Shown piece by piece: positions 6,926-33,850 of a stretch of 33,850 bases of DNA (positions are counted from its first letter, which is position 1; every line of letters begins with the position of its first letter). Location of the stretch: positions 1-33,850 of the forward strand of contig JASJFV010000183.1 of the NCBI GenBank assembly GCA_033791885.1, read 5' to 3'. The DNA comes from Gammaproteobacteria bacterium. GTDB lineage: Bacteria > Pseudomonadota > Gammaproteobacteria > BMS3Bbin11. The notes under the pieces were generated by a model. The model did not search any database. It had not been told where the DNA came from and saw nothing but the letters and a program-made list of their open reading frames with translations. Made by a program: the position numbers and the translations under genes.

Positions 6926-7020
6926 TTGTGCTGGCGCACGGCTGATTCGGGTTCTTTTTCTGTATTATGCTGGCACATGGCTGGGTGGCTATTATTTTTT
7001 ATATTATGCTAGCGCATGAC
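6926..7020. repeat. Three short quasi-palindromic units (TRTGCTRGCRCA) at a 39-bp period
   Basis: Units start at 6927, 6966 and 7005; related inverted unit at 7693-7709 and a unit near 32895. Confidence 0.65.
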
Positions 7021-7026
7021 CGTGTT

Positions 7027-7628
7027 TTTCGCCCTTTTTGGGCGAGTATCTTTTCTTTGCGTGGCCAAAGAAAAGGTACCAAAAGAAAGGCCACTCTACC
7101 GTGTTGGCCTTCGGCGTCTCTGTGCGCTTCAGCTTAGAGCGGGCGCTGCGGAACTCGCTATCGCTCAGACAGTCCTCGCGCTACTCCGCTCTAAGCCTCC
7201 AGTGCTCGACAACACAAAAGGGGATATAAGATCAAAAAAAAGTCAAAACCTGTTCGGTGACGTCTGATACGGTATTACAAACACCTTAACTTTTCTTCCG
7301 TCATACCGGCGAATGCCGGTATCCAGAAATAGTATAAATAATGGATTTCGGCTAGAGGCATGCCGGAATGACGATAATTAATTCCTCTTTTGTACTTAGT
7401 CTTTAGTCTTTGCTCTTGATCTTAAACCTCCCGTTCAGGCTCGCCGAGAAGCACAGGATGAGCCGGAGATTTCGGGGTGTGACTGTCCGAGCGTAAGCGA
7501 GTTTCACATCCCGCCAGCTCATTCGAGCATCGCAGGGCACCCGCAGGGCGAGCATGTTGGGTGTCATTTCTTTTGGTACCTTTTCTTTAGACAAGTAAAG
7601 AAAAGGTACTCGCCCATAAAGGCGGAAA
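7027..7628. repeat. Composite structured non-coding element, copy 1 (arm A ~7027-7225, central palindrome 7299-7373, arm B ~7428-7628); MITE-like or ncRNA
   Basis: ~60-bp related inverted termini; colinear with the reverse complement of 32290-32884. Confidence 0.85.
7299..7373. repeat. CGTC-type REP-like palindromic dimer
   Basis: CGTCATACCGGCgaatGCCGGTATCCA ... TGGATTTCGGC...GCCGGAATGACG; homologue at 32538-32611. Confidence 0.75.
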
Positions 7629-7721
7629 ACGAATGGAAATTCAATCGAAGATTAAGAAAAAGAAACCTGCCTGGGAAAAGCAAAACCAATCTGCCTTGCG
7701 CCAGCACAAATAAAAAACTAA

Positions 7722-8519
7722 TCAAGCAAATAAATAAATCAAAAACAACCCAAGCAATATCCGGTAAACAACAAACACCATCATCCCCATTCGCTGAATC
7801 AGTGAAAGAAACAACTGAATACAGATATAGGCAAACACTGCCGAACAGGCCGCGCCAATAATAAAGCTGCGCCAATCTATCGGCTCTGCCGATTCTGCAA
7901 GATCAGCACCTAGCAGAATGCCGGGTAAAATGATCGCTGGTATCGACAGCAAAAAGGAAAAACGTGCGGCTGCAGTGCGTGTCAAACCAAGCAGCAGTGC
8001 CGTCGTTATGGTAATACCTGAACGGGAGGTGCCGGGTATCAGTGCCAGTATCTGCGAGCCACCGATTAGCAGTGCATCTTTCCAGCTCAAAGAATGCTCA
8101 TCGCGTTCCCGTTTACCGACATGATCTGCCCAGCCTAGAAGCAGGCCAAAGATTATCGTAGTTGCCGCAATCACCAGCGGTGAGCGTAAATCGCCTCCGA
8201 CTGCCACCTTCATCAGCACCCCGCCAATACCCAGCGGGATAGTGCCGATTACCACTGCCCATGCCAGTTTCGAATATTCGGTATTGGGTCTGCCTGCCAG
8301 CGTTAAAGCCCAGTCACGTATCATCGGCACCAGGTCATGGCGAAAATACAATAGCACCGCCGTCAGGCTGCCGACATGAACAGCGACATCAAATGCCAGC
8401 CCCTGGTCAGGCCAGCCCAGCAGGCGAGGTAATAAAATGAGGTGGGCAGAACTGGAGACCGGTAAAAATTCTGTAAATCCCTGTACGGCGGCAAGCCATA
8501 TTGCCTGTATATCTGTCAC
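7722..8519 (-). CDS. uppP: Undecaprenyl-diphosphate phosphatase (BacA)
   Basis: QGFTEFLPVSSSAH and PGTSRSG motifs. Confidence 0.96.
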   Translation of the reverse strand: MTDIQAIWLAAVQGFTEFLPVSSSAHLILLPRLLGWPDQGLAFDVAVHVGSLTAVLLYFRHDLVPMIRDWALTLAGRPNTEYSKLAWAVVIGTIPLGIGGVLMKVAVGGDLRSPLVIAATTIIFGLLLGWADHVGKRERDEHSLSWKDALLIGGSQILALIPGTSRSGITITTALLLGLTRTAAARFSFLLSIPAIILPGILLGADLAESAEPIDWRSFIIGAACSAVFAYICIQLFLSLIQRMGMMVFVVYRILLGLFLIYLFA

Positions 8520-18797: not shown

Positions 18798-18874
<77 letters not shown>

Positions 18875-19268: not shown

Positions 19269-20090
19269 CTAGTGTGACATCAGAACTGGGATGATCATTG
19301 ACGAGAGTATGGATTGGGTAACGCCGCCGAATATTTTTTGTCGAATACTGGGGGTGCCGTAACCGCCCATGATCAGAATATCAATATCGTTATCAGCTAT
19401 CTGATTCAGTATAGTGGTTTGTATATCGAAGGTACCCGGCTCAAGGTATCTTGCTTTTGCATTAATTTCGTGTCTTTCCAGGTGTTCTATTAGTTCTTCA
19501 ATGAGGACGTCTTCCGGGGTTGCCTTTTTGCTGGCAATAACCAGTATGGTAACTTCTTTTGATTTGGACAGAATCGGCATCGCATCGTGTAACGCCCGTG
19601 TGCCTGCAGGTGATCCATCCCAGGCGACCATGGCATTTTTACAGGGTATTCTGTGGGCGCCGATATAGGGCATAAAGAATATGGGGCGGCCACAGTGCAG
19701 CAAGACGTCTTCGGCGAATTCCATCAGACGGGAATAGTTTTCCCTGTCTGGGTTGGGTTGTCTTAACATGACCAGATCATAATTTCTGGCGTATTGTGCC
19801 ATCTTGCGTGCGCCTGCGGCCAGCTTGCCCGGAATGACAATCGTATTAACTGTCAGCCCTTCTTTTTTGCCAGCCTCGATGAATTCCTCTGCGAGTTGAT
19901 GTGCAAACTGCTTGGCAATGACAGCGTAAGCGTCCTCATCCTTAACCCTGAGATGTTCTGGCTTTATTGCTTCAAGAGATACACCTGTTAGTTTTGCACC
20001 ATGGGCTTTTGCCATATAAAAGGCGGCCTGTATGCGAACCGGGTTGCTTTTGCCATCATCAAGAAATACCAGTATGTCCTTGTAGTTCAT
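19269..20090 (-). CDS. Universal stress protein (tandem USP domains)
   Basis: YKDILVFLD, VAWDGSPAGTRALHDA, LIMGGYG, FGGVTQSIL, PVLMSH. Confidence 0.92.
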   Translation of the reverse strand: MNYKDILVFLDDGKSNPVRIQAAFYMAKAHGAKLTGVSLEAIKPEHLRVKDEDAYAVIAKQFAHQLAEEFIEAGKKEGLTVNTIVIPGKLAAGARKMAQYARNYDLVMLRQPNPDRENYSRLMEFAEDVLLHCGRPIFFMPYIGAHRIPCKNAMVAWDGSPAGTRALHDAMPILSKSKEVTILVIASKKATPEDVLIEELIEHLERHEINAKARYLEPGTFDIQTTILNQIADNDIDILIMGGYGTPSIRQKIFGGVTQSILSSMIIPVLMSH

Positions 20091-20177
20091 ATTTGTTCCA
20101 GTTAGATATTGTTGCGTTCAATTGTCCAGGGTAGTCTGACTGTTTTGGATGCACTGCAATAAGGTATAAAAACAGTA

Positions 20178-21005
20178 TTAATGCGACATCAGTACGGGTG
20201 TAAGCATTGTTGACAGTAAAGAGCGTGTTACGCCACCGAATATTTTCTGTTTCAGGGTTGGTGTCCCGTAGCCACCCATTATCAACATATCAATGTCATT
20301 ATGTGAAATCGTATTGAGAATTGTTGCTGCCACACCGGATGTACCGGGTGAAACGTATTCAATATGAGAGGATATACCGTGTCTTTGCAAGTGAGCTGAC
20401 AACGTCTCTGCCTGTACATCGCTTTTGCTTTCCAGCTGCTTCTTGCTTTGTACTATAAGAATGGTGACATCCTCGGTTTGTTCCAGCATTGGAAGGGCGT
20501 CATGTATGGCACGTGCTGCAGCGGGCGTGCCATCCCATGAAATGAGTGCCTTTTTACATGGGATCTTGTTGGCACCAATATACGGTATAAAGAAAATAGG
20601 GCGACCACTGTATAGCATCACTTCTTCTGCAAATCCCAGCATACGCAAATAGTTCTTGCTATCAGGGTTTGGTTGACCCAGTACGATCAGATCTGAGTTC
20701 CGTCCATAGTGTGCCATTTTGTTGGCACTGGTCTCGGAGTTTCCTTCGATAATAATTGACTCAAAATCAATTTCTGCAGTGCTGGCCCTTGCAGAAAATT
20801 CTGCAGCGAGGCTTTCTGCCATTTGCCTGGATTTCAGGGCAGTAAACTTGTCATCATCCGAATTCAGCTTTTCTGGCCGTAATGTTTGCAGAGCAGCTCC
20901 AGTCAGTCGGGCACCATGTGATTTGGCCAGGTAAATAGCCATATCTACACGCTCGTTATGGCTTTTGCCATCATCAAGAAATACCAGTATGTCCTTGTAG
21001 CTCAT
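20178..21005 (-). CDS. Universal stress protein, paralogue of the neighbour; start placed at ATG 21005
   Basis: Same motifs; ATG 21005 aligns with the paralogue start and has AGGA upstream. Confidence 0.92.
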   Translation of the reverse strand: MSYKDILVFLDDGKSHNERVDMAIYLAKSHGARLTGAALQTLRPEKLNSDDDKFTALKSRQMAESLAAEFSARASTAEIDFESIIIEGNSETSANKMAHYGRNSDLIVLGQPNPDSKNYLRMLGFAEEVMLYSGRPIFFIPYIGANKIPCKKALISWDGTPAAARAIHDALPMLEQTEDVTILIVQSKKQLESKSDVQAETLSAHLQRHGISSHIEYVSPGTSGVAATILNTISHNDIDMLIMGGYGTPTLKQKIFGGVTRSLLSTMLTPVLMSH

Positions 21006-21055
21006 AACTGTTCCTGTCAAATGATATGAGAGCAGATGTCTAATACATTGGTGTG

Positions 21056-30610: not shown

Positions 30611-31158
30611 AGTAAATCTCTATGTCTAGGGAACCTCTGATTAATTATGCCATATCTCTGGCTTAAAGCTTGATTCACAATCAAGGCGAAGCTTTGAAAG
30701 CATGCCTGGGCCTGGTGAAAAGTGACAACGAAGAGTGTGAATCAAGCAGTAAGCCCCGTAGGGCAAGGTCTGAAACGGCACAGCTACGGCATTGTGCTTC
30801 TTGCAAAGGACATGGCCATTCACTGCGAAGCACGCTTTGTCGCTGGCCATTTCAGGACTTGCAGAGGTATAGCATAATTAATCAGAGGCTCCCTAGTAGT
30901 TATTGATGAAACTCTGGTATCCAGCGATAGCGTCTTTGGGTCAGATTATGGCCTATTTTTTTTATTATTGTCGCGTGTCTTAAGAATAATCATCGGCATC
31001 ATGACCTTCAACGGCCTGCATTATGGGTACATTTTCAGGTACACCTTCGAACAACATAAAACGCATTTAAACAGTAGACCGACGGATTGAGTATACGTTA
31101 ATGTATTGTTTTAACGACGTTTAGGTGTGCACCTATTCGTGTCGGGATTATTGTTCAC

Positions 31159-31209
31159 GGACTCATAATCCCCTGGTCCGGGGTTCGACTCCCTATGAGC
31201 CCACCAACA
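31159..31209 (+). repeat. Distal att site: partial 3' copy of tRNA-Ile2
   Basis: GGACTCATAATCCCCTGGTCCGGGGTTCGACTCCCTATGAGCCCACCAACA, 46/51 identical to 18827-18877; lacks the tRNA 5' half. Confidence 0.88.
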
Positions 31210-32289: not shown

Positions 32290-32884
32290 TTTCGCCCATA
32301 AAGGCGAGTATCTTTTCTTTGCTTATCCAAAGAAAAGTCACCAAAAGAAAGGATACCCGACATGCACGCCCTGCAGGTGCCCTGCGATGCTCGACTGAAC
32401 CGGCGGGATGTGAACTCGCTGTCGCTCGGACAGCACATCCCGACATCCCCGTCTCATCCTGTGCTTCTCGGCGAGCCTGAACGGGAGATTTTTAAATCAA
32501 GAGAAAATACGATGACCAAAGATAAAAAAATCATTATCGTCATTCTGGCATGCCTCTGGCCGGAAGCCATCCTTTTACTCTTTCTGGATACCGGCCTACG
32601 CCGGTATGACGATTGTGTGTTCTGGATGGGTGATCTTTCTTGTCAGGTTCCATTGAACAGATTTTTAATTGGTTCTTGATGCATCCTTCCTTTTTGTGTT
32701 GTCGAGCACTGGAGGCTTAGAGCGGAATCGCGCGAGGACTGTTTGAGCGATAGCGAGTTCCACAGCGCCCGCTCTAAGCTGAAGCGCACAGAGAAGCCGG
32801 AGGCCAACATGGTAGGGTGGCTTTTCTTTTGGTACCTTTTCTTTGGCCACTGAAAGAAAAGATACTCGCCCATAAAGGGTGAAA
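32290..32884. repeat. Composite structured non-coding element, copy 2, inverted (arm B ~32290-32487, central palindrome 32538-32611, arm A ~32689-32884)
   Basis: Reverse complement aligns module by module with 7027-7628. Confidence 0.85.
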
Positions 32885-33008
32885 CACTCGGCAGTGTGCT
32901 AGCACAATAGAGAACAAGAAATGAACCCACCCATGAAGGACTAAAATCTAACTAAGACTTATACACTAGTATAAAAACTAGCCCTGTAATAGCAAAAAAC
33001 TCAACAAG

Positions 33009-33607: not shown

Positions 33608-33648
33608 AAACGGAATTAACTTAAGACAGCTTTATTGTTAGCTCTCTA

Positions 33649-33850
33649 TTAACTGGCCACCTGCTTCTTAGTAGTCTTCTTGACCGCCTTTTTCTTAACT
33701 GCCTTCTTAACCGCCTTTTTCTTAACAGCTTTCTTAACCACCTTTTTCTTAACTGCCTTCTTAACCGCCTTTTTCTTAACTGCCTTCTTAACCGCCTTTT
33801 TCTTAACAGCTTTCTTAACTGCCTTTTTCTTAACGGCTTTCTTTACTGCT
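33649..33850 (-). CDS. C-terminal part of a Lys/Ala/Val-rich histone-H1-like protein; partial, absent from the ORF track
   Basis: Minus-strand frame reads (AVKKAVKKK)n...TTKKQVAS-stop; third-position variation among repeats; followed by a terminator. Confidence 0.8.
   Translation of the reverse strand, partial: AVKKAVKKKAVKKAVKKKAVKKAVKKKAVKKAVKKKVVKKAVKKKAVKKAVKKKAVKKTTKKQVAS

Follow-up and report, generated by a model that had tools for sequence, protein, structure and literature searches.

A candidate mosaic intergenic repeat with a CGTC-tagged REP dimer set between two structured arms

Layout of the element and its copies in the window

The window, a stretch of 33,850 nucleotides that makes up positions 1 to 33,850 of contig JASJFV010000183.1 in the gammaproteobacterial assembly GCA_033791885.1, carries two copies of a non-coding element. 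Copy a occupies 7027-7628 on the plus strand and copy b 32290-32884 on the minus strand, and the two are 82% identical over 604 aligned bases. Both run in the order arm A, CGTC palindrome and arm B, which bears out the original prediction of a ~600-bp unit that recurs in reverse complement with its modules in the same order. When copy a was compared with copy b by BLAST, identity was 92.9% over 196 nt in arm A, 87.0% over 77 nt in the palindrome and 86.3% over 204 nt in arm B, and neither of the AT-rich linkers of copy a matched copy b at E <= 1e-3. The sequences around copy a bear no relation to those around copy b. An ORF of the BacA family (PF02673) reads into copy a; its stop codon lies at 7722-7724, and the outer module X1' starts 13 nt past it.

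Arms A and B are inverted relatives, 71% complementary over 149 nt (7026-7174 and 7481-7629), so the description of the arms as divergent members of one family placed back to back holds, and the related inverted termini given with it were found at both ends. The limits first assigned to copy a, 7027-7628, proved right for the core, but homology continues through bracketing repeat modules to about 6926-7709. The palindrome is likewise present as described, except that it is made of two inverted hairpin units (Table 1). ORFs overlapping either copy matched no Pfam family, in agreement with the claim that no transposase is encoded.

Table 1. Modules of copy a, from left to right, and the corresponding parts of copy b.
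Feature	Position	Strand	Remarks
Outer module X1 (TTGTGCTGGCGCACGGCTG), left boundary of the mosaic	6926-6944	+	Inverted partner at 7675-7709; lies 65-80 nt outside the arm ends in many copies
Two further X-like direct repeats, 39 nt apart	6963-7022	+	X2 6963-6983; X3 7002-7022
Terminal hairpin H, left (TCGCCC, 5-nt loop, GGGCGA)	7027-7046	+	T-rich tract next, reading inward; terminator-like at 7028-7046 (+)
hp2, left: hairpin CTTTTCTTTG/CAAAGAAAAG and mirror tract	7050-7090	-	Exact pattern match 7050-7088; three-way covariation; minus-strand order: third strand, Watson-Crick pyrimidine strand, loop, purine strand
Arm A domain: predicted nested helices, conserved apex (CTGTCTGAGCG..AGCGAGTT)	7092-7223	- (folding strand)	31-sequence alignment
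Linker 1, AT-rich, weakly conserved	7224-7298	.	BLAST match beyond itself only in C166
Left CGTC-tagged REP unit: CGTC, 8-bp stem starting AT, 4-nt loop, CCA tail	7299-7325	+	
Right CGTC-tagged REP unit: CGTC, 8-bp stem, 9-nt loop, CCA tail	7342-7373	-	
Linker 2, short TTAGTC-type tandem repeats	7376-7429	.	Conserved TTGATCTT directly ahead of the arm B domain
Arm B domain, architecture as arm A	7430-7563	+ (folding strand)	34-sequence alignment
hp2, right	7567-7605	+	Third strand 7567-7574, Watson-Crick pyrimidine strand 7581-7588, purine strand 7597-7604; exact pattern match 7567-7605, on the minus strand
Terminal hairpin H, right	7610-7628	+	Terminator-like read inward on the minus strand, 7624-7611
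Right outer modules	7629-7709	-	Y' about 7629-7660, degenerate spacer hairpin, X1' 7690-7709
Copy b	32290-32884	-	Arm B 32290-32491, REP dimer 32536-32611, arm A 32689-32884
X-like module next to copy b	32894-32905	-	Opposite-side outer modules missing here, present in G008

Copies aligned together with their flanks follow one order from the outside to the centre: T-rich leader, X1, a weak hairpin with a T run, a second X or a Y, H, hp2, arm domain, linker and centre; beyond the centre the same modules follow in mirror order. The X modules are direct repeats at each end and inverted between the ends. An X2 or a Y module adjoins the terminal hairpin in other copies, and one contig of the DNA sequencing run X1 skips 6965-7005, which corresponds to one 39-nt unit. 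Contigs of other copies skip linker 1 (7222-7296 or 7222-7298). The sequence TTGATCTTA is common to linker 2 and to the sequence ahead of arm A on the minus strand. Two other identities for single modules were rejected: H is not an abundant REP in its own right, as TCGCCC-N3-7-GGGCGA occurs only 21 times and mostly within the element, and module X fits the consensus of a sigma-54 promoter or of an integron attC site poorly.

By its sequence, the centre belongs to a kind of repeat already described, the CGTC-tagged REPs, and fits their published definition as a head-to-head dimer. In the sections of PMC3733652 that define them, such REPs have a CGTC tag, an 8-9-bp stem whose first two positions are complementary A/T, a 4-5-nt loop and a CCA tail, occur mostly as head-to-head dimers and lack a linked transposase. 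The window's dimer has unpaired CGTC tags at 7299-7302 (plus strand) and 7370-7373 (minus strand), A/T-starting stems of the right length (ATACCGGC/GCCGGTAT and ATTCCGGC/GCCGAAAT, the latter with one mismatch) and a CCA tail after both units. Its tags lie outside and its tails are separated by 16 nt (7326-7341), slightly below the 20-100 bp of the published spacer. The loops measure 4 nt on the left and 9 nt on the right, against the 4-5 nt of the definition; some CGTC-tagged families have other loop lengths (PMC3733652). In that paper, Di Nocera, De Gregorio and Rocco (2013) equate the Neisseria CGTC-1 family with dRS3 repeats.

The centre thus resembles CGTC-tagged REPs as described in PMC3733652 in its tag, 8-bp AT-starting stem, 4-nt left loop, CCA tail, head-to-head arrangement, extragenic position and lack of a linked transposase. 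It is unlike them in its 9-nt right loop, in the small size of its family (the 77-nt palindrome occupies seven places in the window's genome) and in being set between two 200-nt structured arms; where the same source reports REP dimers in larger palindromes, these extend only up to about 50 bp. The original prediction could assign no named family and held that a match to a described MITE, REP or Rfam family would remove novelty. Such a match exists for the centre, which fits the CGTC-tagged REP superfamily (PMC3733652), but not for the arms, which match nothing in Rfam. In this element a REP type known from the literature is combined with arms for which, as for their hp2 motif, we found no description in the searchable literature, outside of which lie subscription journals and supplementary files.

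Predicted folding of the arms and the hp2 motif

Each arm folds better than 200 of 200 shuffles, with z scores from -3.4 to -4.9. In the alignment of 34 arm B sequences, 97.2% of the cells in the 55 predicted pairs were paired, compared to 32-48% when the partners were slid, and 17 pairs had changed on both sides, a number that 0 of 500 shuffles reached. Arm A (31 sequences) has the architecture of arm B with different stem sequences, and 16 of its 43 pairs were compensated. Pairing in the arms stands at 97% of cells versus about 45% in slid controls. The covariation in both arms supports the view that they are under selection for pairing, as had been proposed from conserved modules joined by drifting linkers. 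Against Rfam 15, no family reached the gathering threshold other than tRNA and rRNA in the window, in loci of eight relatives and in 20 metagenome loci, and the best hit over the element in E-value mode had an E of 1.5. The search for a named RNA family that the original prediction recommended therefore left the arms without a match in either mode. The only Rfam hit in the whole window was a tRNA at 18798-18871.

The two strands of an arm are not equivalent. Departures of the G-U and A-C types on the strand read from the centre outward numbered 93:14 in arm B and 155:9 in arm A over all pairs, and 73:14 and 90:9, respectively, over pairs with a Watson-Crick consensus, counts in which this strand is somewhat favoured because the arm structures were predicted on it. 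As an independent check, we folded the strands of 105 distinct metagenome arms separately: the outward strand was the more stable in 86 of them, with means of -77.8 and -72.1 kcal/mol (Wilcoxon p 2e-11). Together, these predictions show a strand rule under which each arm is kept foldable on the strand read from the centre outward. Because of the outward-strand G-U bias, the arms would fold on opposite DNA strands, each from its domain towards H.

Adjoining H in each arm is a hairpin of almost invariant sequence together with a pyrimidine tract in mirror arrangement; we call this motif hp2. The hairpin has 9-10 bp, with one pyrimidine and one purine strand, and the outward strand carries, ahead of the hairpin, the mirror image of its pyrimidine strand. 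A pyrimidine-motif triplex that folds back, its third strand running parallel to the purine strand, would have this arrangement. From the window's genome and all loci collected came 207 instances with 56 distinct strand triples. Over at least 8 positions, the third strand matched the purine strand in parallel register in 50 of the 56 and in antiparallel register in 31. Where the purine strand has a moved or added G, both pyrimidine strands have the matching C. The 20 types that lack the commonest purine tract had a match of 0.89, compared to 0.80 for random third strands, and none of 2000 permutations was as high, a margin that the low sequence complexity of hp2 keeps statistically modest. In sequence, then, the third strand behaves as required: it is parallel, places T over A and C over G, and changes with the duplex; examples are purine strand AGAGAAAAG with third strand TCTCTTTT, and AAAGAGAAG with TTTCTCTT. 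The three strands of hp2 are thus shown to co-vary, at the level of sequence, as a pyrimidine-purine-pyrimidine triple helix would require. An intramolecular triple helix may form at hp2, and the complementary strand could equally form a purine-motif triplex.

The hp2 sequence is almost unchanged in genomes from 34% to 70% GC. It is possible, and we put this forward tentatively, that the arms are a widespread bacterial class of structured nucleic acid for which we know of no catalogue entry. Its hallmark would be a contiguous fold-back triple helix of 8-9 triples beside a terminal hairpin, and it might serve as the handle of a new single-strand mobilisation system or as a bacterial parallel to RNA end protection by triple helices. 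As in the ENE-type RNA triple helices described in PMC13541005, hp2 has two U-rich strands and one A-rich strand, one pairing being Watson-Crick and one Hoogsteen, and as double-stranded DNA its purine tract is a mirror repeat like those of H-DNA (PMC13541005). An ENE, unlike hp2, clamps a separate 3' A-tract in an internal loop; the strands of hp2 are contiguous and fold back (PMC13541005). The bacterial triple helices given in the relevant part of that source are only riboswitches and a group II intron. The motif is short and a triple helix is predicted from its three-way covariation, which makes it a clean test case; should the triplex form and be recognised, bacterial mobile or regulatory DNA would be read in a new manner.

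Copies, separable modules and wider distribution

The element had been described as present twice. BLAST of the window's genome, a 396-contig assembly that is 89% complete, gave 43 matches. We count six full or near-full copies (two on the window's contig, C183, and one each on C174, at the start of C166, on C88 and on C79) and 14 partial places, of which 13 are at contig ends. With 13 of 14 partial places sitting there, the repeat evidently breaks the assembly of this MAG. Of 41 relatives, 16 were matched, including all 10 genomes of the same genus, and arm B occurs in all 12 genomes of the GTDB order with 2-31 matches per genome; the sole match in a pattern scan of genome contigs for arm B was an Arenicellales MAG. 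The proposed BLASTN check thus found the modules to be multicopy in the window's genome and across the order. In the DNA sequencing run X1, summed contig depth was 1106-2147 over the arms and 34-37 over the flanks, values that do not represent a copy number.

These counts bear on the possibility that copies a and b stem from segmental duplication long ago inside the window, or are alike by chance. In its favour, the window itself holds just two copies, 82% identical, and the original prediction had named only two copies with uniformly decaying identity as the mark of a simple old duplication. The element instead occupies dozens of places in the genome and occurs in every relative of the order, its conserved modules stand beside unalignable linkers, and the flanks of copies a and b are unrelated. 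We regard this explanation as refuted by the copy counts.

Sites compared between relatives differ in whether they hold the element. Between an ORF for a cNMP-binding/HTH_Crp_2 protein and an ORF with a rhodanese domain, the element is present in G000 and G008 and absent from G002, G005, G006 and G007. Copy b, which has its orthologue in G008, is thus the one missing in these four relatives. Among eight genomes with the BacA-family gene, only G000 and G001 have arms downstream of it. Gain or loss at an orthologous site is therefore shown. Copies held at orthologous sites by species whose genes are about 80-90% identical show long residence, not recent jumping. No assembled contig of the sequencing runs skips the whole element. 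At the Arenicellales loci, where the relatives' genes are ~80% identical and the junctions unreadable, there was no exact empty site, and four Paraburkholderia loci that we compared gave no clean one; an apparent 650-bp difference in Paraburkholderia, considered as an empty site, is really a deletion in the neighbouring gene. No target-site duplication was evident outside H in 15 aligned flanks or outside X1 in 49.

The modules also occur apart. Short forms composed of X, a single H, Y' and X1' lie on C353 and C313, the copy on C79 lacks the palindrome, and halves and single arms are common in other species, in which the centre is taken by GTAG-tagged doublets or by a third palindrome. The CGTC palindrome dimer stands alone in G029 (locus L064), which belongs to another family, and at the orthologous copy b G008 has outer modules that G000 lacks. 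The original prediction that the cassette spreads as a whole is therefore unsupported in that form: the element is multicopy, but its 600-bp unit does not always move intact.

Beyond the order, the exact hp2 pattern occurs in at least 120 metagenome contigs of 34-70% GC. Among the metagenome matches listed, a perfect hairpin adjoins hp2 on its outer side in 87 of 124 instances, and many are accompanied by an arm domain that is recognisably related. Sampling of the class found the pattern in 19 of 401 genomes (15 of 320 genera) and a reversed-pattern control in none; one viral contig has it too, in low-complexity sequence. Plasmid or chromid records with hp2 came from Burkholderia, Paraburkholderia, Ralstonia, Pasteurella, Aeromonas and Pseudoalteromonas; a search of 5,426 complete E. 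coli genomes did not find the family. The Paraburkholderia caribensis replicon NZ_CP012748.1 has 45 hp2 hairpins, mostly in pairs about 511 bp apart, in the layout of the window: X-like direct repeats, H, hp2, arm, centre and the mirror image. Comparison of these sequences shows an architecture common to Gamma- and Betaproteobacteria and an arm family distributed patchily over both and over many habitats, with occurrences in marine Arenicellales, Burkholderiaceae and many metagenomes. In AT-rich organisms the hp2 motif occurs without an arm domain. On one metagenome contig (L210), an hp2 hairpin directly follows the CCA end of a tRNA gene in an rRNA operon, with a second copy nearby.

Gene ends, modes of movement and related repeats

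The repeat tends to begin where a gene ends. Of the 43 X1 sites with an ORF neighbour, 27 follow the stop codon of an inward-reading ORF at a distance of no more than 30 nt (mostly 2-19 nt); another six X1 sites have no ORF beside them and are outside this count. REPs have been reported within 20 bp of the 3' ends of flanking ORFs (PMC3733652). In the metagenome loci, 49 ORFs around the motif read in and 40 away, figures that are uninformative in GC-rich DNA. Read inward, H and its T-rich tract are terminator-like at both ends of copy a. By a strict rule, terminator-like sites were present in only 12 of 51 X1 flanks inward and in 0 of 51 outward, compared to 3.75 for shuffles. Such inward-facing hairpins with T tracts may stop or insulate transcription from the flanking genes.

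A consensus scan detected no sigma-70-like promoter within the element on either strand, and no convincing -35/-10 pair was recognised when the TTGATCTT region was read by eye. RNA library X19 yielded 19 matching contigs whose depth is confined to 7027-7653, and run X17 two matching pieces, one of them on a Dyp_perox_C (PF20628) ORF; both are assembled contigs of a multicopy repeat and constitute no evidence either way on transcription.

REP- and MITE-like intergenic repeats shape transcription ends, mRNA stability and genome rearrangement, most of them by no known mechanism. We propose, with a probability of roughly one half, that the stretch at 7027-7628 forms the core of a single copy of a mosaic repeat of this REP/MITE-like type, non-coding, non-autonomous and built from separable modules. 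Two arms of ~200 nt would point apart, each running from a multi-helix domain through hp2 to the GC hairpin H, with the head-to-head CGTC-tagged REP dimer between them and with outer X and Y modules that end a few bases from the stop codon of the neighbouring gene. The arms would act as folded single strands, either of DNA or of RNA, and an enzyme encoded elsewhere would recognise them and copy or move modules. As to how the element moves and in which form it acts, we prefer single-stranded DNA with a trans-acting enzyme over RNA, because the hp2 sequence is fixed across base compositions, pointing to a sequence-specific partner. Part of the original prediction of a non-autonomous mobile unit or structured-RNA cassette is retained here: the element is multicopy, non-coding and present or absent at an orthologous site, and its arms are under selection for pairing. 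Invariable movement as a whole 600-bp unit is not retained.

The arms may instead be primarily RNA: small structured RNAs whose synthesis runs outward from the centre, or 3' structures that act in cis within read-through transcripts, with the hp2 triplex and H forming an exonuclease-resistant end like an ENE and with genome spread secondary. We consider this possible and clearly less probable than the mosaic repeat moved as single strands. The strong preference for G-U over A-C on one strand of each arm would suit RNA, as would multi-helix domains with variable helix lengths, which are seen in RNA families, and an hp2 geometry on the outward strand that fits a U-A-U/C-G-C triplex. Section 15 of PMC3733652 moreover holds that REPs near gene 3' ends act as RNA. 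However, single-stranded DNA tolerates G-T pairs too, and the near-invariance of the hp2 sequence across hosts exceeds structural need. The neighbouring genes run into the element on its less stably folding strand, and neither a sigma-70-like site in the element, nor a hairpin followed by a T run in the 51 outward flanks, nor an Rfam family match was found.

Double-stranded movement is a further alternative, in which the element would be a classical MITE, an internally deleted derivative of an unseen DDE-type transposon, and the two or three direct X repeats per end would be transposase-binding sites. The orientation of the X modules suits this, an X-like repeat recurs in the same layout in Paraburkholderia, and the element has the terminal inverted repeats, overall inverted symmetry, small size and lack of an ORF or transposase of its own that are typical of MITEs. 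We nevertheless think it unlikely. Recognition of double-stranded DNA leaves the within-strand covariation and the G-U bias of the 200-nt arms unexplained, no target duplication was seen outside X1, and no transposase-bearing element lay between such ends in G003, in one Paraburkholderia replicon or in 121 metagenome loci. Nor was an autonomous IS with the same ends found in the window's genome, in regions of G003, in that replicon or in those metagenome loci, which share no recurring neighbour protein other than spurious ORFs over the repeat itself.

No HUH (IS200/RAYT-like) gene, of the kind that the original prediction had suggested looking for beside other copies, adjoins the copies in the window's genome. 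This genome has four Y1_Tnp genes and two genes of the IS110 family, none of them flanked by the element, and the four Y1_Tnp genes are on contigs without arm matches. In G003, one Y1_Tnp gene lies 138 nt outside an X module.

Several known repeat systems share features with the element. The BIMEs of E. coli are mosaic intergenic repeat clusters. Like BIMEs and the mosaic intergenic regions of Neisseria, the latter mentioned in section 7 of PMC3733652, the present repeat combines several short repeat families under a regular grammar, in intergenic positions near gene 3' ends; the modules are others, and here the long multi-helix arms have their own strand rule, a comparison made by description only. 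The REPIN/RAYT and TIR/TIRYT (tyrosine transposase) families likewise persist for long and consist of two self-folding units in inverted orientation, and a mechanism based on single strands and an HUH enzyme is proposed (PMC3733652, section 16). GTAG-tagged doublets, which in REPINs are linked to a RAYT gene, take the centre in copies of other species; the arms, unlike REPINs, lack a GTAG tag, and no arms flank the Y1_Tnp genes in the window's genome. Correia, ERIC and RPE elements are bacterial MITEs. They resemble the element in small size, lack of an ORF, inverted ends, many copies, intergenic position and possible terminator activity, and differ in that here neither a target duplication nor a parent IS was seen and the inverted "ends" are 200-nt structured domains conserved across classes.

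Longer versions of the element in G003 and Paraburkholderia, examined as autonomous forms, proved to hold unrelated nested IS of the IS110, IS5-like, IS256 and IS91-integrase types. Other mobile elements also land in the arms. In G003, the arm B apex is occupied at one and the same position, after CTGTCTGAG, by an IS110-family element and by a MITE of roughly 290 nt with perfect terminal inverted repeats (L093:1130-1760, L097:650-1260 and L094:960-1480), and IS5-like, Y1_Tnp and IS91-integrase genes lie between arms. Many arm B matches in G003, G005, G006, G009 and G010 are split at this apex position. In P. caribensis NZ_CP012748.1 (L225:1050-2450), the third-strand pyrimidine tract of hp2 is interrupted by an IS256-family element (Transposase_mut, 425 aa), with 8 bp duplicated. 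This replicon has another hp2 pair of equal spacing (1.89 kb) at 2357366-2359257, and in Paraburkholderia an IS5-like element is inserted within another copy.

The window holds other repeats. At 30626-30896 is a separate 271-bp element with 35-nt terminal inverted repeats (91% complementary); full or partial copies with 90-97% identity lie on seven other contigs of the genome, and it seems to represent a MITE family without relation to the mosaic repeat. A 62-nt direct repeat (90%; 20046-20107 and 20961-21022) marks the starts of two adjacent minus-strand ORFs, 19269-20090 and 20178-21020, and suggests that these may be tandem paralogues. The 3' half of a tRNA-Met gene at 18798-18874 is repeated 12.3 kb downstream at 31159-31209 (51 nt, 90%), which is the pattern of a putative integrated island bounded by a tRNA attachment site. 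At least six tandem copies of a 27-nt unit occupy 33630-33845, up to the end of the window.
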